A stretch of 64,000 nucleotides of DNA from Mayamaea pseudoterrestris (Eukaryota). This document shows, one piece after another, positions 3,664 through 30,338 of the stretch (its first letter is position 1; every line of letters begins with the position of its first letter). Under the pieces are notes generated by a model. The model ran no database searches and was not told where the DNA came from. It saw only the letters and a program-made list of their open reading frames with translations. A program made the position numbers and the translations under genes. The stretch covers positions 558,001-622,000 of the forward strand of contig BROI01000016.1 of the NCBI GenBank assembly GCA_027923505.1, given 5' to 3'.

Positions 3664-4399
3664 CGGACGGTGCAAGGTCATTTTTTTTGAACACTTTGAA
3701 TATAAAAATGCATGAATGCATACACCCTACAAGACTATTCGCTACCCAACCGAGGGCCAAGGCCATGCCTTGCAGAGCATGACATGAAAAGGAACATTGC
3801 CCCGCCGAGAGCGGACTCCGAATTTTGACAGAAACATTTTTGATTCTAAGCGATGCAGGATCTCTTATATAAAACAACACAACTCTTGAACATGTAGTGT
3901 TGTCATTCATCATTTTGCATTCGCTCGGGTGATGCGCGTCGGCGACTATCTCGCCAGTCGTGTACCGGTGTGATGTTCTCCATCGTGTACCGGTAAGATG
4001 GGAGAGCAGCCAGCGTATTGAAAACTCGCCGGCCGAGCTACCGGTAGGTATCTTTCGTTCGCTAGCGACCGTGAAGTCGAGCTTTCACTAAACTTCCGAT
4101 CGACCCGATCGACCATTGGCAGCAGCATCCACTCTTGCCGTTTATAGCATACATTTGGTCTTTCACATTGATTCATAACACTAGATCTAGTAAGTAAGTC
4201 ACGCGGCAGCTAGCGCTGTGCTTTTTTTGGTCATCAGAGACGTATTGGTTCAGCTGCTGCTCCATTTGGTCGAGTTGCATCCGTTCTTTGTTCCTTCCTC
4301 GTCGGCAGTGGCAGCCGCTCTTTAACGCTCTATTCTCGTACACTTACACATCGCTCTTTATTTCATGCACCAATGCAAAAAAGGATCGACGATCGTCAG

Positions 4400-4492
4400 A
4401 TTCGGAGTTACTACTCTTCTGGCAAGCGCAACTCGTTCTTCATATTCGGAGTCACTACTCTTTTGGCAAGCGCAACTCGTTCTTCACATTCG
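4400..4492 (+). repeat. 44-bp tandem duplication (2 copies) just upstream of the gene B ATG; also at ~12011-12103
   Basis: attcggagtYactactcttYtggcaagcgcaactcgttcttcaY occurs twice. Confidence 0.9.
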
Positions 4493-4494
4493 AA

Positions 4495-5654: not shown

Positions 5655-6634
5655 AGCATTATAATATAGACCTTTTTATAGATTGTGAAAAACTTGTAAA
5701 GTAAACGAAGAGCTTGTGCTGACTGCCAATTGTAGTTTTGCTTCACCTCGTCCTCGCTTTTGTCGAATACGTAGCACGTCACCGACACGATGCAAGCTTA
5801 GACGATCCATTTGCTTTGTAGAATAGTAAAGCCTCTGCAGTACGTGCGGAATTGATCCAGTGTTACGGTTGCATTGAAAGTCGATACATCGTGTCCGACG
5901 CAGAGCAATGTCAGACGATAAATCAGTGTGTACCGGCTGACTATCCGCTACTGAATATTCATTTTCGTTATAAATGGGCCTCGCCAGACTGGACAGGAGG
6001 GACGCTGTTTGACGATAATCATCGGTGATAACGATGGATCATTATGTTGGCGACGCACTCCATCGTCTTGCTTTGTAAATGCTTCTGCAAAAGACAAATT
6101 GGATCATTAGAATTATGGAAGCTGGTTGATGTGCCCTAGCTGGGAGAGTGTTGGCACGAGTGGCACCTTTTTGAACGAACATTACTTAGATTCCATAGAT
6201 CCGTTCGACTCAAGTAATTAAGAAACATTTCTCTGTTGAGAGAACCGTTGCGCGCAGGGCGACTCCGTTCATGCGCGAAACCCAAATTTTGTCCCTGACG
6301 TGGTGAATGCAAAGTATCAATCAAGCACAAGTTCCTGAATAGCTGTTTTCGACACGGATGGACAGAGTGAACTTTCGCAAAGGTGAGCACAATGGCATCA
6401 TTGACGAGCAGCTTGCACCTTGTTTTGTCCACCTTTTGGACGACGACGTGCCACTTGACGCGACAAGCTTGACACGACGAGCGAAAGCGCATCTTTGGGA
6501 AGAGGCAGGCACGTGCGTATGTCCGTTTTTGGATCCGTTTTTGGATCCGTTTCTGTATCCGGTGTCGTCGCCACTCACAAAATCCGTCGTGGCCGAGATC
6601 TTTGAAGCACTACAGTTATAAAAAGTACGCAACC

Positions 6635-8464
6635 ATGATGATCAAACTTGCTACTCTCTTGATTTGCCTTGCGAGTCCAGTGCTTGCTGTCCAGATTGAT
6701 TCGAACAAGGATGACCATCAGCAGCAGCAAGGACTAATGATGAGCAAGCCGACCGGCATGCGCAAGTTCGACGCGATCCGTCGTAGCTTCAATCGTTTCT
6801 TTGAGAAGAATCTCATTGCAACTATTGAGGAAGCTCAAGTTAGTATCATGGCCAATGCAAAAATCAAAGGCTCCACTGCCAGCAACAAGGCACCTTCAAG
6901 ACAGGAAGAGACGAAACAAGCCGATCCGATCATCTTGCCGAAGAAAGATCCGATGACATCGATGACAGACGGCAAAGAAACTGCCGAGGAGCTGTACGAG
7001 AAGAACTTTCACTCTGTTGTTGAAACTGCAGCAAGTCAATACGGCGAGAAACAAGTAATGAACTCGTTGGGTCAGCCTACTGACGGCGACTCTAGCGACA
7101 AGGAGGAACCCACGGCCAAACGCGCACCCTACTCGACGCCCGTCGAGGACAGCAAAACTAAAGAGAGGAGCCTTCTCGAGCCAGCTCTAGATATTCCTAC
7201 GCACGCGCCTTCTCTGGTACAAAATGAGTTTAGGCGTCCGATTAATGATTTTGTTTCGGTGCCACCTTCAAACTCTCCAACGACTCTTCCGACACCAGGT
7301 GAGCCTATGCATCCCAGCCTACGTCCGAACAACACCGTGCTTTCCCCGCAAGCAGCTTCGTCTTCAACCACAACAGCTGATCCATTTGGACGCTCAAGCC
7401 CATTCAAAGCAGTTGGACCAACCTTTGCTCCAACGAGCGACAATCCTCGCAACAACGTTCGCTCCAGAGCGCCAGCTCCACTACATGCGTCCAAAAAAGG
7501 AAGTAAAGGCTTGTTTGCCCCTGCTAGACGGCCGGTTCCACTTTTGGAGGAAACACAAGAACCAACATCGGCACCAGCGAGCGACTTGCGTCCACACAGT
7601 GACTTTCTTTCCCCGCTACCTTCGCAAGCTCCGTCGCTCGCATCTCGCAAAGGAAGTAAAGGCTTGTTTGCTCCGGTTCGGCGACCAAGCCCACTCTTGT
7701 GGGAATCGGAAGAACCAACATCGGCGCCAGCAAGCGACTTGCGTCCACACAGTGATATTTATTCGCCTCAACCCTCAATCGCTCCGTCAATGGCGTCTGC
7801 GAAAGGAAGTAAAGGATTGCTCGCTCCGATGAGGCGTCCGAGCCCACTCTTGTGGGAATCGGAAGAACCAACTTCTGCGCCAACAAATGACTTGCGGCCA
7901 CACAGTGACATGCATTTACCGCCTTTGCAAGCTCCACCACTCGCGTCTGCGAAAACAAGTAAACGAGTGCGCGCCCCGTTTAGGCGTCCAAGCCCATTGC
8001 TTTGGGAATCGCAAGAGCCAACTTCTGCGCCAACAAATGACTTGCGGCCACACAGTGACATGCTTGCACCACCCTCGCAAGCTCCCAGTGCAGCTTCCAC
8101 AGGCGTCACCGATAGAAATGAAGCCGATCCTAGCGTCCCAAGCCCTTTTGGACCGGTTGGTCCGAATGTTCCACTGCCTTCACAAGGTAAATCACCGGCT
8201 CATCAGTATCAACCAAGTCGATCTACAACAGCAGATCCAACATCAATGAGTCAAGCTTTCAGTTCAGCTCAAACCGATGAACGGAAGCAGAATGCGCCAA
8301 TCCATTATCCTACACTGGATCCGAGCGCGCCACTACCTGCGTCCGAGGACATCGCCAAGCCCTCAACACTACTTACTGGAATGCCACCTACTCCAACGTC
8401 CAAGGAAGTACCTCGGCCAGAATCCGCGAAGCCAAAAAAGGACGCGGCGCGAGTTGAGTTTTGA
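6635..8464 (+). CDS. Secreted Pro/Ser/Thr-rich repeat protein 'C' with four ~51-aa repeats carrying KGSK/KTSK
   Basis: Signal-peptide-like MMIKLATLLICLASPVLA; repeat period 153/153/150 bp (7501, 7654, 7807, 7957); intact in both duplicate copies. Confidence 0.85.
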   Translation: MMIKLATLLICLASPVLAVQIDSNKDDHQQQQGLMMSKPTGMRKFDAIRRSFNRFFEKNLIATIEEAQVSIMANAKIKGSTASNKAPSRQEETKQADPIILPKKDPMTSMTDGKETAEELYEKNFHSVVETAASQYGEKQVMNSLGQPTDGDSSDKEEPTAKRAPYSTPVEDSKTKERSLLEPALDIPTHAPSLVQNEFRRPINDFVSVPPSNSPTTLPTPGEPMHPSLRPNNTVLSPQAASSSTTTADPFGRSSPFKAVGPTFAPTSDNPRNNVRSRAPAPLHASKKGSKGLFAPARRPVPLLEETQEPTSAPASDLRPHSDFLSPLPSQAPSLASRKGSKGLFAPVRRPSPLLWESEEPTSAPASDLRPHSDIYSPQPSIAPSMASAKGSKGLLAPMRRPSPLLWESEEPTSAPTNDLRPHSDMHLPPLQAPPLASAKTSKRVRAPFRRPSPLLWESQEPTSAPTNDLRPHSDMLAPPSQAPSAASTGVTDRNEADPSVPSPFGPVGPNVPLPSQGKSPAHQYQPSRSTTADPTSMSQAFSSAQTDERKQNAPIHYPTLDPSAPLPASEDIAKPSTLLTGMPPTPTSKEVPRPESAKPKKDAARVEF

Positions 8465-8880
8465 GTTTAGCAGCTATATGTGACGTTGCATAAGGCATGG
8501 TTACGTTAATCATGTTTGCAAATAGATCGCAAAACAATAGAATACAGAGAGTTTAGAGCTAATCAATGCATTATTTTTGCTTCATAATAAACTATCGTAT
8601 GCTCCATCGCGTGCGTAGGTATTTCTTTTACGTAAATTACGTGCTTCGGATAATCCGTTCTACTATTCGCCTCAGTAGCGCTTCGTGGAAAGGCGCAACT
8701 CCTGAAAGTCAAACCGCCAGCCACAATCAAATGCGCTGCAATAGGAAAGGGCGGGTGGCCCAATCGTATCAGCGCGACAACGAAAGTCGTATCTATTCAA
8801 CCATCTGCTAATGGCCCGCACCTTTCTCGACGAGGCGAAGAGTGAATCAACAATTAAACTAAATGCTTTACAGAGTCCTT

Positions 8881-10479
8881 CTACTCATCCTCGCCATCCC
8901 AAAAAAGGTACCTGCGCAAGGTTCCATCTGGGTGGAAGTCGGTAAAAAATCCATCCACAAACTCATCATCCGCGAATGTTCCTTCGCGACAAGTGCCGTC
9001 GCACAATTTGAGTTTGCCTGCTCCGTGGAAGTTGCCATCTTTAAACTCGCCTTCATAACAATTGCCGTTGCTCCAAATATATTTGCCCTGCCCCTCGAAT
9101 TTGCCGTTCAAAAAGCTGCCCTCGTACGAATTGCCGTCAATCCATGTAACTTTGCCGTAGCCATAAAGGAACTTGTCTTCTTTAAACTCGCCTTTGTACC
9201 AATCACCGTCGCTCATTGAAACTTTTCCTTGTCCCTCGTATTTGTCATTCAATAAATTGCCCTCGTACAAGCTGCCGTCTACATATGTAAGTTTACCAAA
9301 TCCATTTTGAAACTTGCCTTCTTTAAACTCGCCTTTGCACCAATCGCCGTTGCTCAATGTGAGTTTTCCTTGCCCATTAAATTCGCCATTTACAAAGTTG
9401 CCCTTGTACCCATTGCCGTCACACATCGACTCGCCGTAGCCATGTGGCTTATCTTGTCGAAACGTTCCTTCATACCACTGACTGCTGCTCCAGGTAAATT
9501 TTCCTTGCCCATCATACATGCCATTCACAAAGCTGCCCTTGTAACAAGCGCCATTGGTCAAAGTCAATTCACCATTGCCGTGAAACTCCCCGTCTTTTAT
9601 TTCTCCGTTGTAAACAGTTTTACCATCGGAGTCGACATAATGTAAAAGGCCTTCACTCATCTTGTCGTACTCCCAAATTCCTTTATACCCACTGCTGCCG
9701 TTGTCCTTTAACTGTTCGCCGTAGCCATGAGCAAATCCATTGCAATAATTTCCCTGGTAAATAGTTCTGCCATCGGAATATTTAAAGCAGCCCTGACCGT
9801 GCATCAGTCCATTGCGAAAGGTACCCTTGTATGATGATCCATCCTCGTATCGTTGTTCACCTTTCATTATTTGACCGTTGTTTATCTCGCCGATTGAGAT
9901 GCGCCGCATGTCATCCTCCAAGTCTTTCATCTCGTCCACCACTTGATCGTCCTTGGGTTTGCTGCCGTCTTCATTTTGGCAATCCATACCCGGCGGCCCT
10001 CCCTTGGGGACAAATTTACCTATTTTGATCCAATCTTCCAAGCAATACTTATCAAGAAAGCTCTCCAGCTTCCACTGGTCTACAGAGGCTTGAGTCCGCT
10101 CGTACTTGAATATCCTTTTTGCAACCCCAAGCACAAACGGTCTAAGCTGTGGACTCAGCTTTTCAATTTGTTGAGTATTCATACGAGATGTCATCTGCTT
10201 TACCAAATGATTGATCTGTTGTAGCTTGTCGAGCATCGCTCTTCTCGTGCTGTCGCTATGTCTCCACGAACCCTTGATCAGCTCGCGGCGATCGGACACA
10301 TCCAACAGGATCCACCAGAGAACTATGCACTTGCTAAACAAGGAGCGATCTGGGCCGATGAACTTGTATAGATTCGATGGAATCGACAGAATAGACTTTT
10401 CGCCTCGGTCAACCTTTTCAAACTCCTTCTTCAACTCTTCGTCTTCCAGTGCAAATATACCAGCGTCACTCACGGACAT
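8881..10479 (-). CDS. MORN-repeat protein, 5'-truncated by the duplication junction (open from internal ATG 10479)
   Basis: Many YxGxFxxGxxxGxG repeats; near-identical to 16870-18280; sequence beyond ~10488 derives from gene A. Confidence 0.75.
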   Translation of the reverse strand: MSVSDAGIFALEDEELKKEFEKVDRGEKSILSIPSNLYKFIGPDRSLFSKCIVLWWILLDVSDRRELIKGSWRHSDSTRRAMLDKLQQINHLVKQMTSRMNTQQIEKLSPQLRPFVLGVAKRIFKYERTQASVDQWKLESFLDKYCLEDWIKIGKFVPKGGPPGMDCQNEDGSKPKDDQVVDEMKDLEDDMRRISIGEINNGQIMKGEQRYEDGSSYKGTFRNGLMHGQGCFKYSDGRTIYQGNYCNGFAHGYGEQLKDNGSSGYKGIWEYDKMSEGLLHYVDSDGKTVYNGEIKDGEFHGNGELTLTNGACYKGSFVNGMYDGQGKFTWSSSQWYEGTFRQDKPHGYGESMCDGNGYKGNFVNGEFNGQGKLTLSNGDWCKGEFKEGKFQNGFGKLTYVDGSLYEGNLLNDKYEGQGKVSMSDGDWYKGEFKEDKFLYGYGKVTWIDGNSYEGSFLNGKFEGQGKYIWSNGNCYEGEFKDGNFHGAGKLKLCDGTCREGTFADDEFVDGFFTDFHPDGTLRRYLFWDGEDE

Positions 10480-10489
10480 ACTAGCGCGG

Positions 10490-11245
10490 CGCTGCAGCCT
10501 TTCAAATGGCTTCCAACACTCCAGCGGCTGGTGCAGCACAGAACTCCAACTTGCTCCACGAGCATTGCTGCTCGTACGTGTTGAGTCAGTTTCAAACTTT
10601 AGGCAATCGAGGCCCTTTTCGGTGACGTCTCCGGTCCCTGGGGCTGTTCCTGTCGCCGAGGAGGAATCAACTGCTACCAGGACGAAAGCAACCTTGCTCC
10701 TGACGCCATTGCTGTAAATGCTACTGCCTCAAGACCAGGTGCCGAATGGGTCACGACAATCGCCAAGCTCGACGACAAGGCCGGCGGGCATTCCCGTGAG
10801 ATGAACCTGCCGATGACTCCACGAACGTCGAGTCGGTCGGGGCTGTTTCCGAAGTTGATTCACTCATAGAAGATACTGCTGCGGGAACGAAACCGCTTAG
10901 AATCATTGAAGGAGCCCGCCGCGACGAAGAAGCTCCTTCAAACAATGAACCAACGAGTGCGATTGTTCCCAAAAGTGCCTCGAGTTTGGGTTCTTCGAAT
11001 GGGCGACCGTCGGCAAAACGACCAGACTTTCGCTTCGATTGAAGATCATCAACGCCAGTATTTCTTTCAAGCGGGAACGCAACTGGAGCATTGTCGTCGC
11101 TGTCAAGGGTCTTGTACATGCCGACGCTTCCTTTGAGCGCGAGCCAGGCGGTAGCTACAGTTTGGTGATTGACTCGGACATTATTGAAGGCTCGTTCCGA
11201 TTGTTTCGTTCTAGAAGCAAGGAGCTGCCGTCCATTGCCAACTAA
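10490..11245 (+). pseudogene. 5'-truncated, frameshifted copy of gene A
   Basis: Aligns with ~2898-3663 with several indels; only the C-terminal ORF 11039-11245 remains open. Confidence 0.85.
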
Positions 11246-12105
11246 CGGACGGTGCAAGGTCAGTCTTTTTGAACACTTTGAATATTTTAATGCATGAATG
11301 TATACAACCTACAAGACTATATTCGCTACCCAACCGAGGGCCAAGGACATGCCTTGCAGAGCATGTCATGAACAAGAACATTGCCCCGCCTATAGCGGAC
11401 TCCAAATTTTGACAGGAACATTTTTGATTCTAAGCGATGCAGGATCTCATTCATATAAAAACAACACACAACTCTTGTACATGTAGTGTTGTCATTCATC
11501 ATTTTGCGTTCGTTCGGGTGATGCGCGTCGGCGACTATCTCGCCAGTTGTGTACCGGTGTGATGTTTTCCATCGTGTATCGGGAAGATGAGAGAGCACCC
11601 AGCGTATTGAAAAGTCGCCGGCCGAGCTATGTAGGTATCTTTGTTGTCCGTTCATTTCGCTGTTTCGTTCGGCGACCGTGAAGGCGAGCTTTTCACCTAA
11701 CTTCCGATCGACCCGATCGACCATTGGCAACAGCATCCATTCTTGCCGTTTTAGCATACAATTGGTCTTTAACATTGATTCAAAACGCTACGTAGATCCA
11801 TTAAGTAAGTCAAGCGGCAGCTAGCGCTGTGCTTTTTTTGGTCATCAGAGACGTATTGGTTCAGCTGCTGCTCCATTTGGTCGAGTTGCATCCGTTCTTT
11901 GTTCCTTCCTCGTCGGCAGTGGCAGCCGCTCTTTAACGCTCTATTCTCGTACACTTACACATCGCTCTTTATCTTATACACCAATGCAAAAAAGGAACGA
12001 CGATCGTCAGATTCGGAGTTACTACTCTTCTGGCAAGCGCAACTCGTTCTTCACATTCGGAGTCACTACTCTTTTGGCAAGCGCAACTCGTTCTTCACAT
12101 TCGGA

Positions 12106-16537: not shown

Positions 16538-19034
16538 CTACTCGTAGACCTCGCCATCCCGAAGAATGCACCTGCGCATGGTTCCATCTGGTTGGAACTC
16601 GGTATAAGTTCCATTTACAAACTCATCATCCGCGAAGGTTCCATCGCGCCATCGACCGTCGCTCAATCTGAGGTGGCCGGCGCCGTGAAAGTTGTAACCT
16701 TCAAACTGACCATCATAACAACTGCCGTCGCTCCAAATATATCTACCGTGTCCCTTGAGCATGCCATTTACAAATGTACCTACGTAACAATCGCCGTTGC
16801 TCAATCTGAGTTTGCCGGCGCCTTGGAAACTGCCATCAGTAAACTCGCCTTCATAACAATTGCCGTCGCCCATATTTGCCGGGCCCTTCGAGTTTGCCGT
16901 TCAAAAAGATGCCGTCGTACGAATTGCCCTCAATCCATGTAACTTTGCCGTAGCCATGAAGGAACTTGTCTGCTTTAAACTCGCCTTTGTACCAATCACC
17001 GTCGTTCATTGAGAGTTTCCCTTGCCCTTCGAATTTGCCGTTCCAAAAATTGCCCTCGTACGAATTGCCGTCGATATATGTAATCTGGCCATATCCGTTA
17101 TGGAGCTTGCCTTCTTTAAATTCGCCTTCGCACCACCCGCCGTTGCTCAATGTGAGTTTTCCTTGCCCCTTAAATTCGCCATCTACAAAGTTGCCCTTGT
17201 ACTCATTACCGTCACACATCGACTCGCCGTAGCCATGTGGCTTGTCTTGTCGAAATGTTCCTTTATACCACTGATTGCTGCTCCAAGTAAATTTCCCTTG
17301 CCCCTCATACATGCCATTCACAAAGCTGCCCTTGTAACAAGCACCGTTGGTCAAAGTCAATTCACCGTTGCCGTGAAACTCCCCGTCTTTTATTTCACCG
17401 TTGTAAACAGTTTTACCATCGGAGTCGACATAATGTAGCAGGCCATCACTCATCTTGTCGTACTCCCATAATCCTTTATACCCACTGCTGCCGTTGTCCT
17501 GTAACTGTTCGCCGTAGCCATGAGCAAATCCGTTGTAATAGTTACCCTGGTAGATAGTTCTGCCATCGGAATATTCAAAGCGGCCCTGACCGTGCATCAG
17601 TCCATTGCGAAAGGTACCTTTGTATGATGATCCATCCTCGTATCGTTGTTCGCCTTTCATTATCTGGCCATTATTTATTTCGCCGATTGAGATGCGCCGC
17701 ATGTCATCCTCCAAGTCTTTCATCTCGTCCACCTCTATATCGTCCTTGGGTTTGCTGCCGCCTTCACTTTGGCAATCCATACCCGGCTGCCCTCCCTTGG
17801 GGACAAATTTACCTAACTTGATCCAATCTTCCAAGCAATACTTATCAAGAAAGCTCTCCAGCGTCCACTGGTCTACAGCGGCTTGAGTCCGCTCGTACTT
17901 AAACATCCTTTTTGCAACCCCAAGCACAAACGGTCTAAGCTGTGGACTCAGCTTTTCAATTTGTTGAGTATTCATACGAGATGTCATCTGCTTTACCAAA
18001 TGATTGATCTGCTGTAGCTTGTCGAGCATCGCTCTTCTCGTGCTGTCGCTATGTCTCCACGAACCCTTGATCAGCTCGCGGCGATCGGACACATCCAACA
18101 GGATCCACCAGAGAACTATGCACTTGCTAAACAAGGAGCGATCTGGGCCGATGAACTTGTATAGATTCGATGGAATCGACAGAATAGACTTTTCGCCTCG
18201 GTCAACCTTTTCAAACTCCTTCTTCAGCTCTTCGTCTTCGAGTGCAAATAGACCAGCGTCACTCACGGACATACTAGCGCAGCTTTTAAACGATGGTCCT
18301 TGATTGGTTATTGCTGCTAGACTTGTCTTAGTTGTTGCGAATGTAGTCGCCTTGTTGATGCTGTGCGAAGCAACTCTGTGAGACACACACTGTTTCGCAG
18401 CAGGGCCATTCCGCTGCGCTTGAGCGTCGACGACGACGGCATCCATGTCTTCATCAATATAGTCGAGCATATCTAGCTCGAAATCGACTGACGGTGGGGG
18501 TGAATGACACATTCTTGCCGAGTTGTTATCACCCATAGTCTTTGGCGAAGGACTAGGACATAATTGAGCGACTTTCTTGGCAAGAGATATTTTCTCCGAG
18601 ATTTTCGGCAGCGGCAGCTCAGGCTTCTTGGTGTCGTTCAAAGTCGAGCAGTACTTCGTACTATCGCCATTGTGGTGCATCTTGGAGCTGTCAATATCTT
18701 CCGCAGCCTCGTTCTTTTGCTCAGATTCGCGAACCATGATGAAATCGTTCATGACATTGTTGAAATTGTCTGTGAATACTCCCTGGTCGAGTCCAGTAAC
18801 CATGATAAACTCGTTCAGGACTTCTTCGTTTTGCTGAATGTCAAGACTCTCCCATTCCTCCATCAGAATTGACTGACGAGTCGAATGGGCCTCATCATCC
18901 GTATCGAACGAAGAAGGCTGCGTCGTCGACGTCATCGACTCTTGCGATGAAATTGATGTCCTTCGTCTTGGAGTAAAGGGTCTCTCAGGTGCAGCAATCA
19001 TGCGCTTCTGCGGTGTAGCTGATCGAGTCGACAT
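16538..19034 (-). pseudogene. Full-length MORN-repeat gene with a frameshift near 16870
   Basis: ORFs 16851-19088 and 16538-16873; AAATATGGGCGAC vs AAATATATTTGGAGCAAC in copy 1 is a 5-nt deletion. Confidence 0.75.
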
Positions 19035-19341
19035 GGATTTGTAGTATGTATGACAGGCTGATGAGGAAAGGGTCGGCAGCAAGTCCAAAGAAAAAATTGA
19101 GCGCGCCGTCGCGATGCGCGATCGGCGTCAAGCAAAAAGCGACGTGACGTGGCAAAATATGATCCCTAAGTATACGGGGCGGTTCGGAAAGGATAGAAAC
19201 TTTTGCTTTTTAAACCTTAAGTATTACAAATTGCCTCGATCGAACGTTGGAAAGGTTAGATAGTTGCTTCGACCGCGGCCAAGATGGACCTCATTTTCCT
19301 CACAAAAAGCAAGTTGCGCACGCCCGACACAGCCAAACACT

Positions 19342-20209: not shown

Positions 20210-20305
20210 CCCGTGATGATGCCTGAGCAACTGCCTAGAACCTCTACTCCAGCTTCTCCCCGTGATGGTGCCTGAGCAACTGCCTAGATCCTCTACTCCA
20301 GCTCC
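20210..20305 (+). repeat. 49-bp tandem duplication spanning the MORN gene stop codon
   Basis: cccgtgatgRtgcctgagcaactgcctagaWcctctactccagct occurs twice (gcctgagcaa at 20221 and 20270). Confidence 0.9.
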
Positions 20306-22464
20306 TCACTTTCACAAACCTCAAACACACTTGTATGAACCTCCGTGTGTATCCCATCCACAAACTCGCCTTTTACAAAAATGCCTTTGTAAGATTCACC
20401 ATCGAACAGTGTCAGTTTGCCGTGGCCGTGGAACTCGCCTGCCTGAAATTCGCCCTCGTATCTGTCACCGGTACAAGATGTCCATATTCCATGCCCCTCG
20501 TAAGTGTTCATGTAAAAGTTACCCTCATACATTTCACCGTTGTCCCATGACAGCTTACCGTAGCCATGGCAGTGCCCATCTTTTAGCTTGCCTTGGTAGA
20601 CAGAACCATCGGCAGAGGCATACTGTCCATAGGTTTCCTCGATCAAGGCATCGGCCCAAGGCCCTTTGTACCAATTGGCGTTGCTACATGAAACCTCTCC
20701 TTGAAAAACTCCATTCTCAAATCTGCCTTCAAAGACAATGTCATCGGAACTAACGATGCGTCCGTGGCTTCTCACGTTTAAGGTATTCTCCCATGAGCCC
20801 TTGTACCAATTGCCAATGCTCCATGATATTCTTCCTCGAAATATACCATTTTCAAACGTGCCTTCGAAAACAGTGCCATCGAAATTAACTAGGCGCCCTT
20901 CGCCGGTAACCCACTTGTTGTTCTCCCAGGTACCTTTTAACCAATTACCTTCGCACAATGCTACTCCACCGTAGCCATGAAAAATTCCGCTTTTAAATTC
21001 TCCTTCAACGACAGTGTCAGTGGCGACGACGCAGCGGCCTCGGCCAATGACCCACTCGTCGTTCTTCCAAGTGCCTTCATACCAATCGCCATGGCTCATA
21101 AACGTCTTGCCGTTGCCATGGAAAAAGTTGTTTTGGAACTCGCCTTGGTAGACACTGCCATTAGAAAAAACCAAACGTCCTGGGCCGTGCATCAAACCAT
21201 TGAGGAAGCTACCCGTATACGATGATCCATTGTTGTACGTGAGGTGACCTTCAATGATTTTGCCGTCATTTACCTTGCCTATTGAGATGAGCGCCATTGA
21301 CTCTTCCAGTACTTCAATACTATCATCCTGTTGGCCCTTGAGCTTCCTACCCTCGACGATTTGGCAATCGACAATGCCACCTTTTGACTGCAATGCGTTG
21401 CTGAGCATTTGGCCATTGCTGATCCAATCTCTTAAACTCTGCTGCCCTTTTGACAGGAACGCCGATTTTGGATACGGAAGAAATCTTTCTAATTTCCACA
21501 GGTCCAGCGCGTCCTTGGTGATCGCAAATTTCTTGGCTTGGACGCCTTCGTACCTCGTTATAATCTTGGCAACACTAATGACAAAAGGCTGGCGCTGTCC
21601 ATTTACCTTCTCTTTTTGTTGCATACGAGCTGTCATCTCCTTGATTAACTCGTCAATCTCGGAAAAGACAGTCATTGCTTTCGCCTCGTCGCCGCTCCAA
21701 GCTCCACTGATCAGCTCGCGACGATCGGACTCCTTCAAGAGTGCGTATCCAGCAATGACTGCCTTGCGATACAGGGAGTGGTTGTCGGCAACGATGCGCG
21801 TGCAGTTGATGGACGTGAACGATGCTCCATTGCGAATTTTGTGAAACATATCAGATTGTACGAGTAAATAGAGAGCCCTGCTGACCAACATTCCAGCACA
21901 TGCTTCCTTAACGTTGACTCCTTCCATATTTGTTGATCCAGAACGTTTCGTCTTTATCTCCTTCAAATTATTCGGAGCAATAAGCGGTGCATGCGGTGCA
22001 ATCGGCGGCACATGCATGGGTTCTGCTGGGTCTGTCTGGTCCGATGCGGAGGCGAATCGGTTGCCACTCCCATTTTCATCCATGTCCATGTAGCCAGGAA
22101 CAAAGTCTATGTTAGCATCGCCGCAAAATTTCGAGCCAAAGTCGTCGTCAGCTACATCATCAGCTCCCAGTACTAGACCATAATATCCATGCACCTTTTC
22201 GTTCTCCGAGGCGGCAAACGACGAAGGGTCTTGTACGTCATAACCAATCTACTCGGAATCGTTCCAATAGCCATCTTTAAACATGTCAAAGCTATCGATA
22301 CTCTTCATCGTTTCGGTTTCTTCGTGTAGCAGTGGCGTCTGACGAGTCGACTCGAATGATTCATAGTGTGTCGAGTCGTCTTCGTCATCTCCATCCAATG
22401 AGAGCAAAGTTTTTCGTGGTGCAATGTCAAGTAGCTTGTCACCTACTACTGCTCGAGCCGGCAT
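20293..22464 (-). pseudogene. MORN-repeat paralogue with one in-frame TAG at 22249-22251 (or a shorter intact CDS from a downstream ATG)
   Basis: ORFs 22249-22464 and 20293-22194 share a frame (..WNDSE*IGYDVQDPSSFAASENEKVHGYY..); MORN repeats; LLKESDRRELISGAW domain. Confidence 0.65.
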
Positions 22465-22501
22465 GATTAAATATTGTATGTAAGGTAATAGAAAGGTGTA
22501 A

Positions 22502-23819
22502 TTGTGGTAGGATATATCCGAACATGCTTCACGACATTAATTGAGGCGCTGCCACTGCGACTGCATGACGTTTCGTTTGTGGCGCATGCAATGACCCTCA
22601 CAATGACCGTGTTAGCTAATCCCAAAACACATTGCCTTACTTTACTGTTAGGAGTATGTGCTCAAAGAGTTATACACTCAATTACTGCTATATCTTGCCT
22701 CTCCTTGTCTTCTATATAGACAGAATTGTTGGCATCAAGCCATCAAATAGGGTTGCTTTGAAAACCAGTGTCAATTTGACTGTATCTACTACTTAGCAGT
22801 GTTTGTGCGCGCGGAGCGCGCAAAAGTCTTGCAAGCGTTGTGAAACCATTGATCCTACCACCTCCCCGCCCCGCGAATGTGTTTGTGGTAGGATACATCC
22901 GAACATGCTTCACGACATTAATTGGTGCGCTGCCACTGCGACAGATATGACGTCAAGCTTTCGGCGCATGGGCAACGACCCTTCGCAATGACCCCGTTAG
23001 CTATCCCAAGTAACATTGCTTTACTTTAAGAGTAGGCTCTCAAAAGAGCCATTGATTACTGTTCAATCTATGCAATCTCTAGTCTTTTCTTTTGTTCCAT
23101 AAAGACAAGATTGTTGGCATCTACCCATCTAGATTCTGGCTACAAATAAGCAAATTGATATGAGGCCAGTATTAATTTTACTTTTGTCTGCGGTTTGGCA
23201 GTGTATGCGCGCGCGAAGCGCGCGAAAGCCACTGCTCCCTAAAAAGCATTGATCCTACCACCTCCCCGCTCCGCGAATGTGTTTGTGGTAGGATATATCC
23301 GAACATGCTTCACGACATTAATTGAGGCGCTGCCGTTGCGACTCGATGACGTTTGCACTCGATGACTCTCAAAATGACCGTGTCGTTCTGCGACATCGCC
23401 TACCTTTTACAGTTGAACGAAGCTTTGTAAAGAATCGAGTCAATACTACGTGTCCTTTTATTGAATTTGTAGATATTTCCTTACTCGTATTGAATTTGTA
23501 GATATTTCCTTACTCAACCAATGCAGTAACATTTCCACAGCTTAGGTTGATGGTAACTGGCTATGAAGGACATTGAACTGCTCTGTAGTGTGGCCATTGC
23601 CTAGCAGTTGTATTAGCGCGCGCGAAGCGCGCGAAAGCCTTTGGACCCTTCATCTGTCCACTTCATCCATGCAGCAAAAGATTATAGCTTTTTATAATAC
23701 ATCTCATGTACCACCTGCAACGCAAGAGGCATCCCGACTAGTTGTGCGCAAAACGCGCGAAAGCCATTGTTCCAAGTTAAACCGTTGATCCTACCACCTC
23801 CCCGCTCCGCGAATGTGTT
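22502..23819. repeat. Head-to-tail array of three diverged non-coding units (22502-22882, 22883-23282, 23283-23819) with conserved termini
   Basis: Each starts ttgtggtaggataYatccgaacatgcttcacgacattaattg and ends ttgatcctaccacctccccgcYccgcgaatgtgt; interiors diverged; GC hairpin near each right end. Confidence 0.95.
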
Positions 23820-23854
23820 ACTATGAGTCATTCAGAGAATAATAACTGCATTAC

Positions 23855-26395
23855 TATGGTGCAGACCCTCGACCCGGTACTGAACACGTTTTGGACTTAG
23901 TTGGTCCATGCGCGCCGGCCAATGGCCTCAACGCCGATGTTTCGCCAGAGTTTCTCCGACGACCGGTGATGGCTCCTCCGTAGAAACTCTACCACGGATC
24001 TACTTTTCTACAGAAACTCGCCTGCCGCAACTTCAACTCTGCTTTCTCGACGGACGCTTGCGAGATCAACCATGGACGACAAGTAACAAATAAAGGCAAC
24101 TACTAGCATTATCAACGGCCACATTCACCAACGCCTTTGCAGCATGACTCACTAAACTTGATTGCAAATGTCCTTTCCCATCTACCGACGAACGCGTCTC
24201 TATCCTCGCCGCAATGTTTTTTGAAACAACGCGCGACGGGCGCCAACGTTCGAGCAAAATATTTCTTTTCCTTCGCATCAAGAACAATTCTTTCGACGCC
24301 ACCAATCGCCTCGACTCTATCATGCAGCTCCAGCAAGGCGTCAAGTTTCTGAGGAAGTGACTTCAACTGAGCAATCGTCTCTCGCCCCGCAAAGAAATTT
24401 GTTGGCGGCGTCGCATTCTTTGCGCGTTTGCTTGACGACGACGACGACGGTGGCGTAACTGCTGCAACCTTCTCTGCCTCAATCAACTGCTGCTGCTTAT
24501 AAATTGATTCGACGTGCCTTTTGTATCGCAAGCAAATGGTTTTGCAAGGATTACGAAGCTCCACTGGAACAGTCATGAGCCATTGCTCGAGGCAATCTCC
24601 TTCGACAGTCGACCACTGAAACTGCTGCGCCTCAATTACCAATGAGCGAACGTTGCGCGCCACGCCATGCGGCACTTTTAGTTGCAACACAAACTCGTCG
24701 GCGAGCTGGGCGAGTGATTTACCGGCATGCTCTTGGGGACTTGGTTGCGCGCCACCATTGTGAACGCCTCTGTATGCCTTGGCAAGCTCGTTTCCTGGGC
24801 TTGGATTGATTTCATTGGATGAAACAAGTGTATTGGCGTTCCCCAAATACAAGACGGCTTCTTCATGGCGCATGTGGCGAGCGTCGTATTGGCATATTCG
24901 CAAGTCCGCCTTTTGAAACGCCGCTTTCAAGTAAGCACCTTTGCGGAACGAGTGCATACCGAATCCCTTGCCTGTCTCAGGACCAAATAATTCAATAAAG
25001 CGCTCTTTTAAATACTTGAATATCGTTCCGTAGTCGAGTCGTTTAGTGCCTCTGTAGTCTCCGTCGTCGCGCCTCGTGTTTGCCCCGAGCGACCTGAGCG
25101 ACTGAAACAACCAACCTTTCTTAAGGCCAAGCAAATGCACCAACAGCAGCAGATGGCGGACTGGGCAGATGTCCGGATACTCATGGTCCGCCCAAAGATG
25201 AAAGTACTGTCCACGCGAGTCGGTCTTTCCGCGTATCTTGAGGCAGACACCGTTGATTCGTCCGTTTGCTTCGACGTGGAAGGACGACGCCTCAAAACTC
25301 TCCATTGATATCGTCAGCAACTCGTCGTCTGCTCTCAAATACAAGTTGATTGCAATCAGAACGGCAACCCAAACGCTCAAACCAACAAGTCCTTCGTAGA
25401 CAAGCAACGCGCCAAGTTTGCGAAGCTGCCATGGTGCAATGGCACAGGATCCGTGTACCTCGTAGTCCTTGTCGAGCAACTGTTTTTTTCCGTTGGCGAA
25501 TTTGAAACAATGTGTCGGCTGTCCAATACGTTTGATCTGACGGTTGCCAAAGTGTTCATTACATCCATGGCTATTTTGGTCGACGCGGAAAAGATTCAAA
25601 CAATCAACACACTTTTCCTTGAAAGAATCCTGCGCCTCGTATCCAATGGACATATGGAGCCATACAATGGCTGAGGCGAAGGCCTTCATGCTATGGTTAC
25701 TCTTCCATCCACCATTGCAACGAATTGGTTCATTGAAGTTAGCGTCACGGAGAAGCATCTCATCGTCGTCACGCAAAAAGGTGTTTGTGTCGAGTTTCTT
25801 CCAACGCAGAAACAACACCAGCGACTCAACCTTCATGGAAGGAACCTTGCCAAGACCAATAGGCCTCGGCAGAAGGAGAACAAGCATTGATTCCCAGTCT
25901 CCAATCATTGCGAGAAACCGCCAAAGCATCGAATAGTAAGAGAGGTAAGAAGTGATCTGAGTCTTCTCGGCCAAGACTGGTCCGTTGGTGTAGTGCCATA
26001 CATTACAGCGGAAGCGAAACGGAGGAGGCGACAGAGTGAATCCATTATGTGCCGCAGAAAGAACAAGCTCATTGTCAAGCTTGCTCTGCAGATCAGGGTG
26101 CAGAACGCACCATCCGCCGATTGAAGCCATTGTTTTGTTAATGGCAATTGAAAGTCAAGGAGCCGCCATCGACACATTCTTTCATCGGCGAAATGTGAGG
26201 AGTACATGCTGTTTCGTGGCGCATTGGGAGCCTATTGCTGAGCGAGCCAATGCACTCCCGAGCCAGGCGAGCATTTCGAGGGTCGCGGGGTGAAGTTCAC
26301 CACGATACATCGCGGTGCGGACCTCACCTCACGTGCTCTACTTAACCCTCCAGTGCACGGTGATTAAATATCGTTGTACTCTAGCGTTATTATGG
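23855..26395 (-). mobile_element. Crypton-type (CryptonS-like) tyrosine-recombinase DNA transposon; may extend left to 22502 to include the array
   Basis: Single YR ORF with no RT or gag; TATGG direct repeats at 23855 and 26391 (ttactatgg / ttattatgg), matching the terminus I recall for stramenopile CryptonS. Confidence 0.7.
24112..26130 (-). CDS. Tyrosine recombinase (672 aa, intronless, catalytic residues intact)
   Basis: R (LYLRADD), K (RGKTD), HxxR (MHSFRKG), H (DARH), Y (AVLYLG); CPVR box; CxxC..CxxH insertion; Cys-rich C-terminal domain. Confidence 0.9.
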   Translation of the reverse strand: MASIGGWCVLHPDLQSKLDNELVLSAAHNGFTLSPPPFRFRCNVWHYTNGPVLAEKTQITSYLSYYSMLWRFLAMIGDWESMLVLLLPRPIGLGKVPSMKVESLVLFLRWKKLDTNTFLRDDDEMLLRDANFNEPIRCNGGWKSNHSMKAFASAIVWLHMSIGYEAQDSFKEKCVDCLNLFRVDQNSHGCNEHFGNRQIKRIGQPTHCFKFANGKKQLLDKDYEVHGSCAIAPWQLRKLGALLVYEGLVGLSVWVAVLIAINLYLRADDELLTISMESFEASSFHVEANGRINGVCLKIRGKTDSRGQYFHLWADHEYPDICPVRHLLLLVHLLGLKKGWLFQSLRSLGANTRRDDGDYRGTKRLDYGTIFKYLKERFIELFGPETGKGFGMHSFRKGAYLKAAFQKADLRICQYDARHMRHEEAVLYLGNANTLVSSNEINPSPGNELAKAYRGVHNGGAQPSPQEHAGKSLAQLADEFVLQLKVPHGVARNVRSLVIEAQQFQWSTVEGDCLEQWLMTVPVELRNPCKTICLRYKRHVESIYKQQQLIEAEKVAAVTPPSSSSSSKRAKNATPPTNFFAGRETIAQLKSLPQKLDALLELHDRVEAIGGVERIVLDAKEKKYFARTLAPVARCFKKHCGEDRDAFVGRWERTFAIKFSESCCKGVGECGR

Positions 26396-26612
26396 CGAAA
26401 GGATTGGCATCACATCATCAGCACGAACGAAATAATGATGATGAGCCCCGCTGCGACATGAGCAATGTCACGCACCGGGAACGTAGCACTTAAGATTAAA
26501 GCTAAAATAGAAAGTTTGGAAAGGTGAGATCAGAGGCGACATTTCCATAGCATAATGGGTACAATGCTCACAAAATCCAAGCTGCGCACCGCTAAAAAGG
26601 CAAGCCAACATT

Positions 26613-27302
26613 ATGAACTTGATCGAAACTCTCAAGATATTCCTTGTCGGCATTGCGGGCGTTCAGGCGACCCAGGATTGGACGCAGAGCATTCTTGCTG
26701 CGTCTGGCTCGGCCAAGGAACATGGCCTCGGGTCATTCTTCCGCCAATCCAAGGTAAAGAAGAATGCAGGCTTCGCATTCTCCCTTCCACATATCATGTC
26801 GATGGTTCAGTTCAATGCTTCAAAGGAGGAGGTCGTCATTCAAGTCCAACCGGGGACGACCCGCACCACCACCACGACGGGACCTTTTGCTGATGCCGAT
26901 CAGACGACAATGAATCCATTGACACTCCTTCGCATCGTTGACGAGGAAGCAACGAACCCCGTTGAAGCTGGCAACGGTGCGTCCTATGCCGTCAGTGACG
27001 ATGTGGGGACGACAAAGCTCCTCGAAGCCGGCAATGCTGCCATTTCGTTTCCTACCGCCACTGCTGCTGTTCTTGTTACGGCTGCTGATGCTGCTGCTTC
27101 TTCTTCTACTATTGTTCCTGACGATACAATGACCATGGATACTGCCGCCACTGACGCATCCAAGGATCAAGTCCTAGACTCGCCGGCAGCGCCGCCGTCG
27201 TTGGTACTGGGTAAGCGCAAGCCCATGTGGGGCATTGGCGTCAAGTTCAATGTTGCCTTTGGGCTAGCTCTTCACATGAAGACCGAACAAGACGTGCAGT
27301 AG
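26613..27302 (+). CDS. Small uncharacterised protein (MNLIETLK family)
   Basis: 229-aa ORF; paralogue of 19342-19875 with similar upstream motifs (ttggaaaggt, ctcacaaaa..caagYtgcgcac). Confidence 0.7.
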   Translation: MNLIETLKIFLVGIAGVQATQDWTQSILAASGSAKEHGLGSFFRQSKVKKNAGFAFSLPHIMSMVQFNASKEEVVIQVQPGTTRTTTTTGPFADADQTTMNPLTLLRIVDEEATNPVEAGNGASYAVSDDVGTTKLLEAGNAAISFPTATAAVLVTAADAAASSSTIVPDDTMTMDTAATDASKDQVLDSPAAPPSLVLGKRKPMWGIGVKFNVAFGLALHMKTEQDVQ

Positions 27303-27972
27303 TTGTAAAACATATCTATCGATAGCAATAGAAATATGCATGTAGTAGAAGTAACTAAGTTGCCTTTGTGGGAAAAGCTATCGCTAGCCTGTGCGTTCGC
27401 TTAACTAACCGAAAGGATGTGAAGCTAATCCATCTTACTTTAAAAAAAGTGATAGACAGTTATGCCTCCACTGCAGCAGTCATGAGGCACACTACACGTA
27501 ACGAAATTTGGTCGTCACATCGCGGGTAGTTTAGCTACTGGTAGTCGTCGTTTAAAGTTTGAACTAAGCTCACGGCAATGGAGGCACGCGCACTTTCCGC
27601 AAAAACCATGCTTACTTTAATGAGTAAGCTTTAGCTTGGACATGAAGCGAGGCGCAAACGTGCCGGTCCGAGATGGGCTCGTCAATCTCGCCAAACGCCA
27701 AAGCATATCCAACGACTAACCGGCAAGGCAAACACATACTTAAAACCGTTTCGTAGACAATCAAAGCGGGCAAAAACTATCTACATTGCGGCAACGAGAC
27801 GAACCTGCTGTGCTCCTGCTGCAATCGCCAAATGTTCCATGGATCATGCCGTTCTCGTCTCCACAGTCAACTCTGCACAGTGCAAGTCATGAAGATCTTG
27901 CTCATTTCTCGCTTTGAAACAAGCTTACCAAAAAAAGATTTTCGCAACGGATATGCGCACCCCGTGTTGATT

Positions 27973-30338
27973 CTACATTCTCACGGGCATTCCATTCCGC
28001 CATTGACCTTCATGGCGCAAAGTACCATCCGGATGAACCTCCTTGCCGTAACCATCCATCTCGCCGTGCAACCAGTTGCCCTCGTACCAGCCGCCGTCGC
28101 TCCACAACATCTTGCCGTTGCCTGAGAATTCGTTTTTTGAAAATTCGCCTTCGTAAACACTATGGTCCATAAATTCGCAACGTCCCTTCCCGTGTCTCAT
28201 TCCATTGACCCAGCTACCAGTGTATGTTGATCCATCCTGGTAAGTCATTTTACCTTCAATCATTTGGCTCTTTATGTACTCGCCTACAAAGACGCGACCA
28301 TAGGCAAACTCCATGATACCACGACCGTGCTTGTGACCATTCTTGAACTCGCCTTCGTAATAATCACCTTCACCGTTTGACAATTTACCATGACCAGTCC
28401 AACTTCCATGCTGCCAGTTGCCTGCTCAAATTGGGAAACATTGAAAAGAGTGAGCAAAATGCAACATGGTTACTTACTAGCACACATGATGAGGCCTTGG
28501 TATTCAACCTCACCTTCATACCAGCGACCAGCACGGTCATACTCAAGCCGCCCATAACCATGAGGCAAGTTCGTTGCTGAACTAATTGGCCCTGTATATG
28601 TCCCTTGTTCCCCGTATGGGTCGGTAATAACAAATGCTTGAACCGGATACGTCCCCGTGTCGGCCAAGCTGGAATGATCCGTACCATGCTCTCCCTTGTT
28701 GATATCGCTCTTGCCGTCACAAGGGACAGATGATTCGCTAGTTGACCCAGTCGATTTTCCTTCATTGCGGGAGAGATGAGCAACAGCAAAGGCTTCCAAA
28801 TCAGACCTTAGCTGCAAATTAGCCGCCATCAGTGCGCGTAAGGCGGCATCATGGCTGTTGCTCCATTTTGTATCTACTTTAAGTTCGCAGTCATGAAGCG
28901 ATGATCGCCCTGCCCGAGATGAGTCGTCCGCAAGTGACTCCGCCAAGGATACGCTTGTGTCGCTACGTTTGTATCTCCGACTTGTTTCACTATCATAGCT
29001 ATACCTGGATCGTTGCGACCCTCGTGAAGAATCGTCAGCAAGCGATGCGCTTGAAGCGCTACGTTTGTATTCCACACTTGTTTCACTCTCGTAGTCTAAA
29101 CCTTCAACGCCAGATCTAGAGTGATACGATCCTCGAGCTGAATTGTCTTCAAGCGATATATGCTGTGGAATAAGATCAAGACCAGGATCTTCAACGATCC
29201 ACTCCTTCAACGTTTGCTTTGTTTTCAAAAGATATGACTGTCCACGAGGTGGAAGGAAATTTTCCAGCTTCCAATTTGTAAGCTTGGCTTGAGGACTCTT
29301 CTCATAGATCTGTATTTTAGAAGCAATGCCTAGCACGTAGGGCTGGCGCCGAGGATCAATGTTTGAAATCGACTTCCCGTCCATACGCGCCGTCAGCTTC
29401 ACAGCCCACTCGTCAACTTGCGCGAATTTTGCCTTCGCTTTCGCGCCGTCGCTCTTCCACTGCCCGTGAATTAACTCGTATCTGTCGTCGTTGTCCAGCA
29501 GCGCATAACCAGCAGCAATAGCCTTGCCAAACTTTGTGCCATCGACGGGTGTAATACCTTCAATCCGGATTGACTCGATTGCTGCTCCTTTTCGGCCAAC
29601 CAAGTCAAATTTCCCGGCCTCAAACAGCTCAAAGAGCGCCTCGCTCACGGGCATCTTGTAGCATCGTCCCTGGACCTTTACTTTATCGTCCTGAACATGT
29701 TTCATCTTTTGTTTATATTGCGAGCGGGTCGTCTCGTGGAACAGTTGTTCCAAATTTATATCCACAGCTACTGACAGGCTTGTCTTGGCCACTGCGAACG
29801 AATTTGATGCATTATGGTGAGAAGCGACTTGATTATTTTCATTCTGTGCTGAAGATATACCATCGGGCTGCTGTTGATTGCCAATGGCGTATTCCGTCTC
29901 CGTGGCGTTCGCCTCAGCGTCGGACGGTTCCGGTGATCGACTAAAAAAAAGATCGGTCAGTGAATGGATCGACGAGGATTTGGAGCCATCCGAGCTACCA
30001 GAGCCGCCCTTGCTCAAAAATTGAGTCCAAGGATCAGGTGACGACGATTGTGCTTCTTTCTCGGAAACGGACAATCCATCGATGTTCGCTGTAACATTTT
30101 CCAAAATAGGCGTATGAATCGATGATGGCAGGCTTGAGTCCTGCCGATTGCAAGTTGAACTATTAGGTAATGGATCATCCCATTCTTGAGAAACTACCTC
30201 TCCTTCTGGCGACGCTTTGTGATCATCAAGGTACGACAGAAAACTGTCGTTCGAGAGAGAGAGAGCCGGAGAACTTGCGTTCGGCCTGTTCGCCCCTTCT
30301 GATTCTGATAATGCAGATGATTCCTTTTTGGTTGACAT
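27973..30338 (-). CDS. MORN-repeat protein, two exons (intron 28422-28513)
   Basis: Removing the GT..CAG intron joins WYEG to NWQHGSWTGHGKLSNGEGDYYEG; MORN repeats; LLDNDDRYELIHGQW domain. Confidence 0.85.

Follow-up and report, generated by a model that had tools for sequence, protein, structure and literature searches.

Three short, non-coding head-to-tail units lying beside an intact tyrosine recombinase gene, in a 64-kb window (the whole stretch of DNA analysed), are members of a non-autonomous family that is dispersed in many copies and whose ends are defined. They are probably rolling-circle elements of the Helitron2/Helentron group (HLE2), inserted successively at one spot. The locus is an ordinary transposon cluster and not a eukaryotic integron, and the recombinase is carried by a CryptonS element that is an independent single-copy insertion into TATGG, 35 nt from the array.

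The three units are found on the forward strand, namely unit 1, a non-autonomous element of 381 nt (22503..22883), unit 2 of 400 nt (22884..23283), and unit 3 of 536 nt (23284..23819), each boundary being given to within one T (+/-1 T). They are joined by the junction GTGTTTGTGG and the array corresponds to exactly 3.0 units. The original observation of three head-to-tail units with near-identical ends and diverged interiors was confirmed, as a 25-nt 5' motif and a 34-nt 3' motif each occur three times in the 64-kb window (0/100 shuffles), with a pairwise identity of 54-58/60 for the 5' 60 nt and 39-41/44 for the 3' 44 nt. Respective to the interiors, 206/308 columns (67%) are identical between units 1 and 2 vs ~51% when shuffled, 205/457 between units 1 and 3, i.e., the shuffled level (~45%), and 208/462 between units 2 and 3. 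The interior of unit 3 is unrelated to those of units 1 and 2, a hairpin block excepted; it further exhibits an internal tandem duplication of 29 bp (23459-23515) and, at 23742-23775, a hairpin block for the second time, in degenerate form. Every unit starts with TGTGG (3/3), as had been reported together with the TATGG found at 23855 and 26391. The outermost junctions, originally described as half-sites, are indeed half-junctions, where neither the left flank AGAAAGGTGTAAT resembles a unit 3' end nor the right flank ACTATGAGTC a unit 5' end. Elsewhere in the 64-kb window, blastn and nhmmer retrieved no further unit copy; the best match, i.e., 19 nt at 89%, inverted and within the recombinase ORF (24620-24638), was rejected as a chance similarity (E 0.34). 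The array sits upstream of a MORN-repeat gene.

The dispersal of the units is apparent in public assemblies of the same organism, from which 363 (X1), 416 (X2), 243 (X3), and 13 (X6) contigs were aligned over 8001 nt. The summed contig depth, which is not equivalent to a copy number, ranges in the six array bins from 146 to 2233 (X1) and from 862 to 11776 (X2), vs 27-53 (X1) and 100-173 (X2) in the flanks, that is a unit depth of ~10-100x flank depth. The interiors are multi-copy too in X1, with a summed depth of 479 in the unit 2 bin and 146 in the unit 3 bin vs ~41. Among the X1 contig ends listed, seven are positioned at 22883, six at 22884, and six at 22885, and beyond these points the contigs continue as unlike sequence (agreement 0.45-0.53); among the contigs listed as starting at 22499 after unlike sequence, five come from X2, five from X3, and two from X6. 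Because depth is raised and many contigs break off where the units end, with unlike sequence beyond, the units constitute a dispersed, high-copy and non-autonomous family, and since the interiors each have their own multi-copy relatives, the array did not arise by duplication in situ. Beyond these assemblies, the 20-mer of the unit 3' end gave 0 matches in a metagenome collection and the unit end motifs 0 matches in viral and prokaryote-genome collections, while these motifs searched as text strings in the literature returned unrelated primers alone among the matches listed.

The end anatomy of the units is constant. An asymmetric inverted repeat of 10 bp, reached by chance in 13/20000 shuffles, has its 5' arm GTGGTAGGAT 1 nt from the 5' end (22504..22513, likewise 22885-22894 and 23285-23294, forward strand) and its 3' arm ATCCTACCAC 22 nt from the 3' end (22852..22861, likewise 23252-23261 and 23788-23797, forward strand) in 3/3 units, the 3' terminus being set by the contig ends at 22883-22885. 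Helitron2 elements are defined by ATIRs of 8-15 bp, the 5' ATIR lying 0-2 bp from the end as part of a 5' palindrome and the 3' ATIR ~20-30 bp from the end, as well as by a 5' T and no target-site duplication (PMC3627910), and both arm length and arm position in the three units fall within these bounds. The units possess a 5' T and a 3' end in ...TGTT. Directly 5' of the array stands TAAT (22499..22502, forward strand), a putative target tetranucleotide of the type where insertion occurs between TNAT and T; the flanks read ...GTGTAAT before the first unit and ACTATG after the terminal ...GTGTT, with no target-site duplication in this one array, and other copies align from TAAT. Such a site agrees with the T-flanked sites of Helitron2 (within TT, or between TTTT and T or TNAT and T). 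In the available part of their description (PMC5148889), FoHeli1 and FoHeli2 have their insertion point between TNAT and T, with a 3' arm 20-40 bp upstream of the 3' terminus.

The hairpins fit this anatomy less well. The palindrome GGATATATCC (22510-22519) overlaps the 5' arm in units 1 and 3 and is imperfect in unit 2; its fold at -1.6 kcal/mol is not better than shuffles (68/200 equally stable). Downstream of the 3' arm, where Helitron2 would display a hairpin, there is a 3-bp stem alone at -1.7 kcal/mol (21-32/200 shuffles equally stable in the three units). A GC-rich hairpin, in which a 7-bp stem is closed by a GGA/GAA loop (22806..22822, likewise ~23209-23223 and ~23618-23632, forward strand) folds at -9.7 to -10.6 kcal/mol, its outer pair being T-A in unit 1 and C-G in units 2 and 3. 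Lying ~30 nt upstream of the 3' ATIR, it occupies a non-canonical place, which speaks against Helitron2, as does a 10-bp ATIR shorter than the 12-15 bp of HINE. In the 64-kb window, the Pfam scan found a Rep/helicase in 0/27 ORFs.

From the sequence of their ends, the rolling-circle assignment of the units appears probable. The three units would be separate members of different subfamilies inserted one by one at the same spot, in a given orientation, after a TNWT-like tetranucleotide and without target-site duplication. The 3' end ...TGTT may mimic the TAAT target, so that a resident copy would offer a new site exactly at its end; precise serial insertion would occur because TGTT resembles the site between TAAT and T, and unlike members could in this way line up precisely, head to tail. 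For their movement in trans, the units would depend on a Rep/helicase gene located elsewhere in the genome. In other words, we infer a rolling-circle enzyme, target mimicry and an order of insertion, the target site being deduced from one array and from the positions at which alignments begin in a summary table. As for Helitron insertions in tandem, they are already on record in the portions of the literature consulted.

The neighbouring recombinase ORF (24112..26130, reverse strand) encodes an intact protein of 672 aa and ends 292 nt from the array. As originally claimed, it is catalytically complete, with R266, K302, H393, R396, H419, and Y428 invariant or almost so in a 30-sequence alignment. 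Pfam gave no match for the protein itself, and the family profile searched against PDB sequences retrieved no recombinase (best E 0.05, Bcl-2-related protein A1), hence the need for a fold search. With the AlphaFold model (mean pLDDT 85), the top Foldseek matches are Cre (E 2e-5, TM 0.58-0.64 by target), whose chains occupy ranks 1-12, the first integron-integrase entry appearing at rank 50 (E 0.06). Among the 30 relatives, four match NDC10_II and one Phage_integrase in Pfam. No conserved stretch suitable as a search pattern was found across the 30 sequences; a pattern drawn from three of them gave 510 (metagenome), 129 (viral), and 80 (prokaryote) matches, none confirmed. The ORF is bracketed by TATGG direct repeats (23855-23859 and 26391-26395), which delimit on the reverse strand an element with putative bounds at 23855..26395, deduced from one copy. 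CryptonS termini are 5-6 bp direct repeats, mostly TATGG (PMC3212892), and judged by these sequence features the element is a CryptonS-type transposon. Its Crypton-type tyrosine recombinase is at flank-level depth, with a summed contig depth of 41-53 (X1) and 110-152 (X2) in the ORF bins (24505-26106).

The proximity of array and recombinase had suggested either a cargo array or an integron-like platform. Between the array and the nearer TATGG boundary of the Crypton there are 35 nt, on the side where the recombinase gene has its 3' end; being beyond the boundary, the array is therefore not cargo, and this claim was abandoned. In its mobile version, the Crypton recombinase or a paralogue would move the units in trans as circles recombining at a TGTGG/TATGG-like core, resulting in an integron-like array. 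Besides the intact recombinase 292 nt away, this very unlikely scenario could draw on the single base separating TGTGG from the CryptonS TATGG, on the resemblance of the array right flank TTACTATGA (23818-23826) to the Crypton flank-plus-core TTACTATGG (23851-23859) and TTATTATGG (26387-26395), and on the junction of joined unit ends, which falls within a hairpin with a 10-bp stem. However, the inverted arms at the joined ends are separated by 23 nt, vs a spacer of 6-8 bp in the core sites of tyrosine recombinases according to the available part of the source (PMC3212892), the array right flank is ACTAT and not TGTGG, and the array stands beyond the TATGG boundaries. The best-supported 3' ends of copies, among those listed, are at 22883-22885, ahead of any TGTGG repeat and not after it, which speaks against a Crypton-type 5-bp crossover repeat. 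Units and Crypton ends lack detectable similarity, with no 7-mer in common between the junction of the units and that of the Crypton circle and no BLAST or nhmmer match in the 64-kb window. As far as the dispersal check originally set out as a refutation could be run, its outcome goes against the integron-like reading: the units reach 10-100x the depth of the recombinase gene, itself at flank level, and their copies have unlike flanks. A tie to a Helitron/HUH element, originally named as another refuting outcome, is indicated by unit ends fitting the Helitron2 terminal pattern. The idea of serial capture thus survives in part, i.e., separate mini-elements with their own multi-copy relatives inserted successively at a regenerated site, while its integron-like platform, which implied a link to the neighbouring recombinase, is not supported. 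By analogy with attC, the CryptonS recombinase might still move the units in trans via a hairpin of their joined ends, circles stacking at a regenerated site and solitary copies being scattered; this is extremely improbable but would, if true, represent a eukaryotic recombinase-driven cassette system with solitary copies also spread through the genome.

Other readings concern the units themselves. Their likeness to Helitron2 could be superficial, the dispersed non-autonomous family being moved otherwise, e.g., as an atypical DDE-type MITE or by an undescribed HUH or other transposase. Dispersal and defined ends would be equally expected there, the Helitron2 terminal hairpins are weak, the strong one is misplaced and a Rep/helicase partner is lacking in the window; nonetheless, this reading is rather unlikely, as there is no target-site duplication and the ends are asymmetric, the 22-nt tail past the 3' arm being part of the dispersed copies, which argues against DDE elements. 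On the same grounds, i.e., no target-site duplication and asymmetric ends, the DDE-type MITE was dropped, and so was the SINE, the units having neither tail nor target-site duplication. Replitrons were dropped as well, for they have short direct terminal repeats and, in the available part of the source (PMC10288648), were not detected in diatoms, a point that counts if the host is a diatom. Finally, the array could be non-mobile, either a young satellite born of local duplication in tandem or a cluster of small structured-RNA genes, whose conserved part would lie across the junction. The ~100 nt conserved across each unit junction do fold better than shuffles (z -4.3) and the array has a whole number of units, but the ends of other copies coincide exactly with the unit termini and adjoin unlike sequence, which already indicates solitary copies across the genome, the interiors of units 1 and 2 vs unit 3 are at shuffled-level identity and the outer copies are cut midway through the would-be RNA. 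Moreover, no Rfam family reached threshold on the array, a Histone3 stem-loop in unit 2 alone scoring 21.9 bits, below the gathering score of 34, and such a non-mobile origin is most improbable.

To find an integron-like platform in a eukaryote would have been highly surprising, but the evidence does not support one. What emerges is a family of miniature elements, probably of Helitron2 type, in a stramenopile-like alga, where a 3' end apparently mimicking the target could in a simple way turn a dispersed transposon into a head-to-tail array, and so into a seed for satellite DNA, together with one additional CryptonS with TATGG termini. Both are of use for the repeat annotation of this genome, and the case calls for caution since an enzyme gene beside an array is no basis for inferring function.

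Compared with known systems, the array resembles integron arrays (IntI, attI, attC) by its units arranged head to tail, whose junctions are conserved and whose interiors differ, the nearby tyrosine recombinase and the hairpin that can form across the junction. The integron core-site consensus is of the GTTRRRY type. In contrast to integrons, the units have no such core sites (compared by eye with the consensus), they are dispersed genome-wide at a depth far above that of the recombinase, the array is positioned beyond the 3' end of the recombinase gene, outside the element that carries it, and the recombinase fold is closest to Cre chains (ranks 1-12) rather than to an integron integrase. Compared by description with the available part of the CryptonS source (Kojima and Jurka, 2011; PMC3212892), the recombinase element likewise has one ORF, for a tyrosine recombinase, TATGG at either terminus, a conserved C-terminal region, no GCR1_C and a low copy number, whereas the units have nothing in common with CryptonS.

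In the partial texts available, non-autonomous HLE2 elements (HINE/DINE-1, Helitron-1N1_CRe, FoHeli copies) are like the units in having a 5' arm at the very end and a 3' arm ~20-30 nt inside, a 5' T, no target-site duplication with T-flanked and orientation-specific insertion, and constant ends with variable interiors at high copy number; tandem insertions are also known in this group. The units match HINE features (PMC4067079), while they differ from HLE2 by the 10-bp repeat, the marginal hairpins at both termini and the strong GC hairpin (GAA/GGA loop), which is upstream of the 3' arm and not downstream. The main text of the HELIANO paper (PMC11417382) does not contain the words diatom or stramenopile. 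Helitron tandem arrays of bat, maize, Drosophila, Xenopus, and Metarhizium, as far as the consulted excerpts describe them, similarly exhibit whole elements or parts head to tail with junctions at the termini. These arrays mostly consist of one element copied by read-through or rolling-circle replication, whereas the three units described here come from different subfamilies, which points to successive insertions.

Three non-coding units (units 1-3) lie head to tail in the window with near-identical ends, just as originally predicted, at 22503-22883 (unit 1, 381 nt), 22884-23283 (unit 2, 400 nt) and 23284-23819 (unit 3, 536 nt), each boundary being good to one T; the outermost junctions are indeed half-junctions. 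The window contains three occurrences of each end motif (25 nt for the 5' end, 34 nt for the 3' end), against 0 of 100 shuffles. Pairwise identity reaches 54-58 of the first 60 nt and 39-41 of the last 44 nt, and interior identity amounts to 206/308 columns for units 1 and 2 (shuffled, about 51%), 205/457 for units 1 and 3 (shuffled, about 45%) and 208/462 for units 2 and 3. The array is flanked by ...GGTGTAAT on the left and ACTATGAG... on the right, without target-site duplication. Unit 3 also carries a perfect 29-bp tandem duplication (23459-23515) and a second, degenerate copy of its hairpin-plus-GAAAGCC block (23742-23775), which suggests a composite that has two 3' regions. On the minus strand of unit 2 (23013-23055), the stem-loop of histone 3' UTRs gave a sub-threshold Rfam match (21.9 bits, gathering threshold 34, E 0.011) that corresponds to GGCTCT TTTG AGAGCC, of which unit 1 contains no more than a degenerate version. 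The array and the neighbouring Crypton element both lie in the spacer of a tandemly arranged gene family. They stand some 310 nt upstream from the ORF at 20293-22194, which belongs to a minus-strand cluster of MORN-repeat paralogues (8881-10539, 16851-19088, 20293-22194, 27973-28383); segments of the genes that flank the two elements recur at 7005-nt spacing.

Every unit starts with T-GTGGTAGGAT, and the 3' arm of the inverted repeat, ATCCTACCAC, stands 22 nt before the unit end (...CTCCCCGCYCCGCGAATGTGTT); a 10-bp inverted repeat at such positions arose in 13 of 20000 shuffles. Since dispersed copies match through the 22-nt tail, the latter is part of the element and the unit ends are therefore truly asymmetric. 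A palindrome, GGATATATCC, overlaps the 5' arm. Each unit further contains a GC hairpin (22806-22822, 23208-23224 and 23617-23633 in units 1 to 3) that has a 7-bp stem, a GAA or GGA triloop and a folding energy of -9.7 to -10.6 kcal/mol; it is placed some 30 nt upstream from the 3' arm, its outer pair being T-A in unit 1 and C-G in units 2 and 3, i.e., a single compensatory change.

Beyond the window, seven public sequencing runs were listed, six of which contain all or part of the stretch, and the contigs of four were aligned to 20500-28500 at a likeness of at least 80% (X1, 363 contigs; X2, 416; X3, 243; X6, 13). Summed contig depth, which is not equivalent to copy number, was 27-53 in X1 and 100-173 in X2 over the flanking genes, 41-53 and 110-152 over the recombinase ORF bins (24505-26106), and 146-2233 and 862-11776 over the six array bins; this 10- to 100-fold excess over the units, in two studies, indicates a multi-copy family. 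In X1, at least 7, at least 6 and at least 6 contigs cease matching at 22883, 22884 and 22885, i.e., the unit 3' end, and continue for a median of 170-255 nt in mutually discordant sequences (agreement 0.45-0.53); at least 7 and at least 6 contigs of X2 likewise cease matching at the unit 3' end. Following unlike sequence, matches start at 22499 in at least 5 contigs of X2, at least 5 of X3 and at least 2 of X6, a run bearing a different organism label whose pieces are 80-95% alike and include both unit termini. As the interiors of units 2 and 3 exceed flank depth in X1 (479 and 146 vs about 41), each unit belongs to its own multi-copy subfamily; no further copy was found in the other 62.6 kb of the window. 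The units thus belong to a family that is dispersed and has defined termini, and separate insertions rather than a local duplication produced the array.

The recombinase ORF (24112-26130, minus strand) is intact, as had been claimed; it encodes 672 aa, and 292 nt separate its end from the array. Its protein had no match in Pfam, and its family profile retrieved no recombinase among its matches to PDB sequences; 775 relatives were found at E<=0.001 in a library of 1.84 billion proteins. In an alignment of 30 of these 775, R266, K302 (after G301), H393, R396, H419 and Y428 are invariant or nearly so, and NDC10_II matched weakly in 4/30 and Phage_integrase in 1/30. H419 and Y428 are spaced like W315 and Y324 of Cre. 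The AlphaFold model (mean pLDDT 85) best matches Cre chains (E 2e-5; TM 0.58-0.64 by target), followed by XerH, lambda integrase and Tn1549 integrase. The ORF is bracketed by TATGG at 23855 and 26391; in the passages of Kojima and Jurka (PMC3212892) on CryptonS, these transposons, which come from oomycetes and a single diatom, end in direct repeats of 5 or 6 bp, mostly TATGG, and conserve the C-terminal region without GCR1_C. The segment 23855-26395 is therefore filed as a CryptonS-type transposon. By the distribution of CryptonS, the host would be a stramenopile alga, probably a diatom. The motif TTAYTATGR occurs at both its boundaries, TTACTATGG (23851-23859) and TTATTATGG (26387-26395), and right after the array, TTACTATGA (23818-23826); the Crypton direct repeat may thus be 9 nt, not 5, and the spacer may have contained a pair of candidate Crypton targets separated by 33 nt. 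In X1, a single contig of depth 121 (vs about 41 for single copy) joins the left 45 nt of the Crypton to its right 136 nt, from 23899 to 26260, skipping 2360 nt with 30 nt on the shorter side; neither X2 nor X3 showed this junction. Bins 24238-24504 and 26107-26373 show about 2-2.5 times flank depth, and both observations may reflect a miniature, internally deleted Crypton derivative.

The original prediction proposed serial capture of mini-elements at a regenerated site, forming a eukaryotic integron-like platform, or else a cargo array carried by the Crypton. Serial insertion at a regenerated site is retained. Cargo is contradicted by the array end (23819), which lies 35 nt outside the Crypton; a recombinase-linked, integron-like platform does not hold either, as the recombinase gene stands at flank depth, so most of the dispersed copies cannot adjoin it. 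One point speaks for mobilisation of the units in trans by the Crypton recombinase: the right flank resembles the Crypton boundaries, the chance of which is roughly a few per cent for such 8-9-mers. This resemblance may only reflect two TATGR sites in the intergenic spacer. Against such mobilisation, unit depth far exceeds recombinase depth and copies have unlike flanks; no 7-mer, in either orientation, is common to the unit ends and the junction of the Crypton circle; after a Crypton-type crossover, each copy should be bordered on both sides by the 5-bp core, whereas the array right flank is ACTAT; among the matches listed, those 3' ends of other copies that have the best support precede any TGTGG; and the arms stand 23 nt apart across a unit junction, as against the 6-8 bp tyrosine-recombinase core in the relevant passage of PMC3212892. 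Such mobilisation is hence very improbable, and we are highly confident that the units form a dispersed transposon family that has no relation to the recombinase. An inverted match of 19 nt (89%) links a unit 5' region (23319-23337) with the recombinase ORF (24620-24638) and was taken as chance (blastn E 0.34).

The best reading is that non-autonomous elements of Helitron2-like type are clustered in tandem beside an unrelated CryptonS, the rolling-circle assignment itself being somewhat favoured. A putative Rep/helicase encoded elsewhere would nick a unit at its T-flanked termini, and the unit would travel via a circular intermediate and insert in a single orientation after a TNWT-like tetranucleotide. 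The unit 3' end, TGTT, would mimic the TAAT target, so that the end of a resident copy could itself be the target; successive insertions would yield the invariant junction GTGTTTGTGG, an array of unlike members and outer half-junctions. Contigs of other copies begin to align at 22499, with TAAT, as would suit a target tetranucleotide that is conserved; alternatively, TAAT could be part of the element.

As defined in the relevant passages of Bao and Jurka (PMC3627910), Helitron2 has asymmetric terminal inverted repeats of 8-15 bp, a 5' T and no target-site duplication; its 5' arm starts at a distance of 0-2 bp from the terminus and belongs to a 5' hairpin, and its 3' arm lies some 20-30 bp inside the other terminus with a hairpin downstream of it, a terminal plan shared by HINE/DINE-1 (Thomas et al., PMC4067079) and, in the sections describing them, by FoHeli elements (Chellapan et al., PMC5148889). 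The units agree in arm length, positions of both arms, 5' T and absent duplication. A 5' palindrome is present and folds no more stably than shuffles. The units differ in that only a 3-bp stem lies downstream of the 3' arm, the strong hairpin being upstream. In the same sections, FoHeli 5' hairpins likewise have GAA loops, and FoHeli1/2 insert between TNAT and T, to be compared with TAAT followed by T at the array left flank. Tandem Helitron insertions are reported, in the portions of the literature drawn on here, from bat, Drosophila, rice, maize, Metarhizium and Xenopus.
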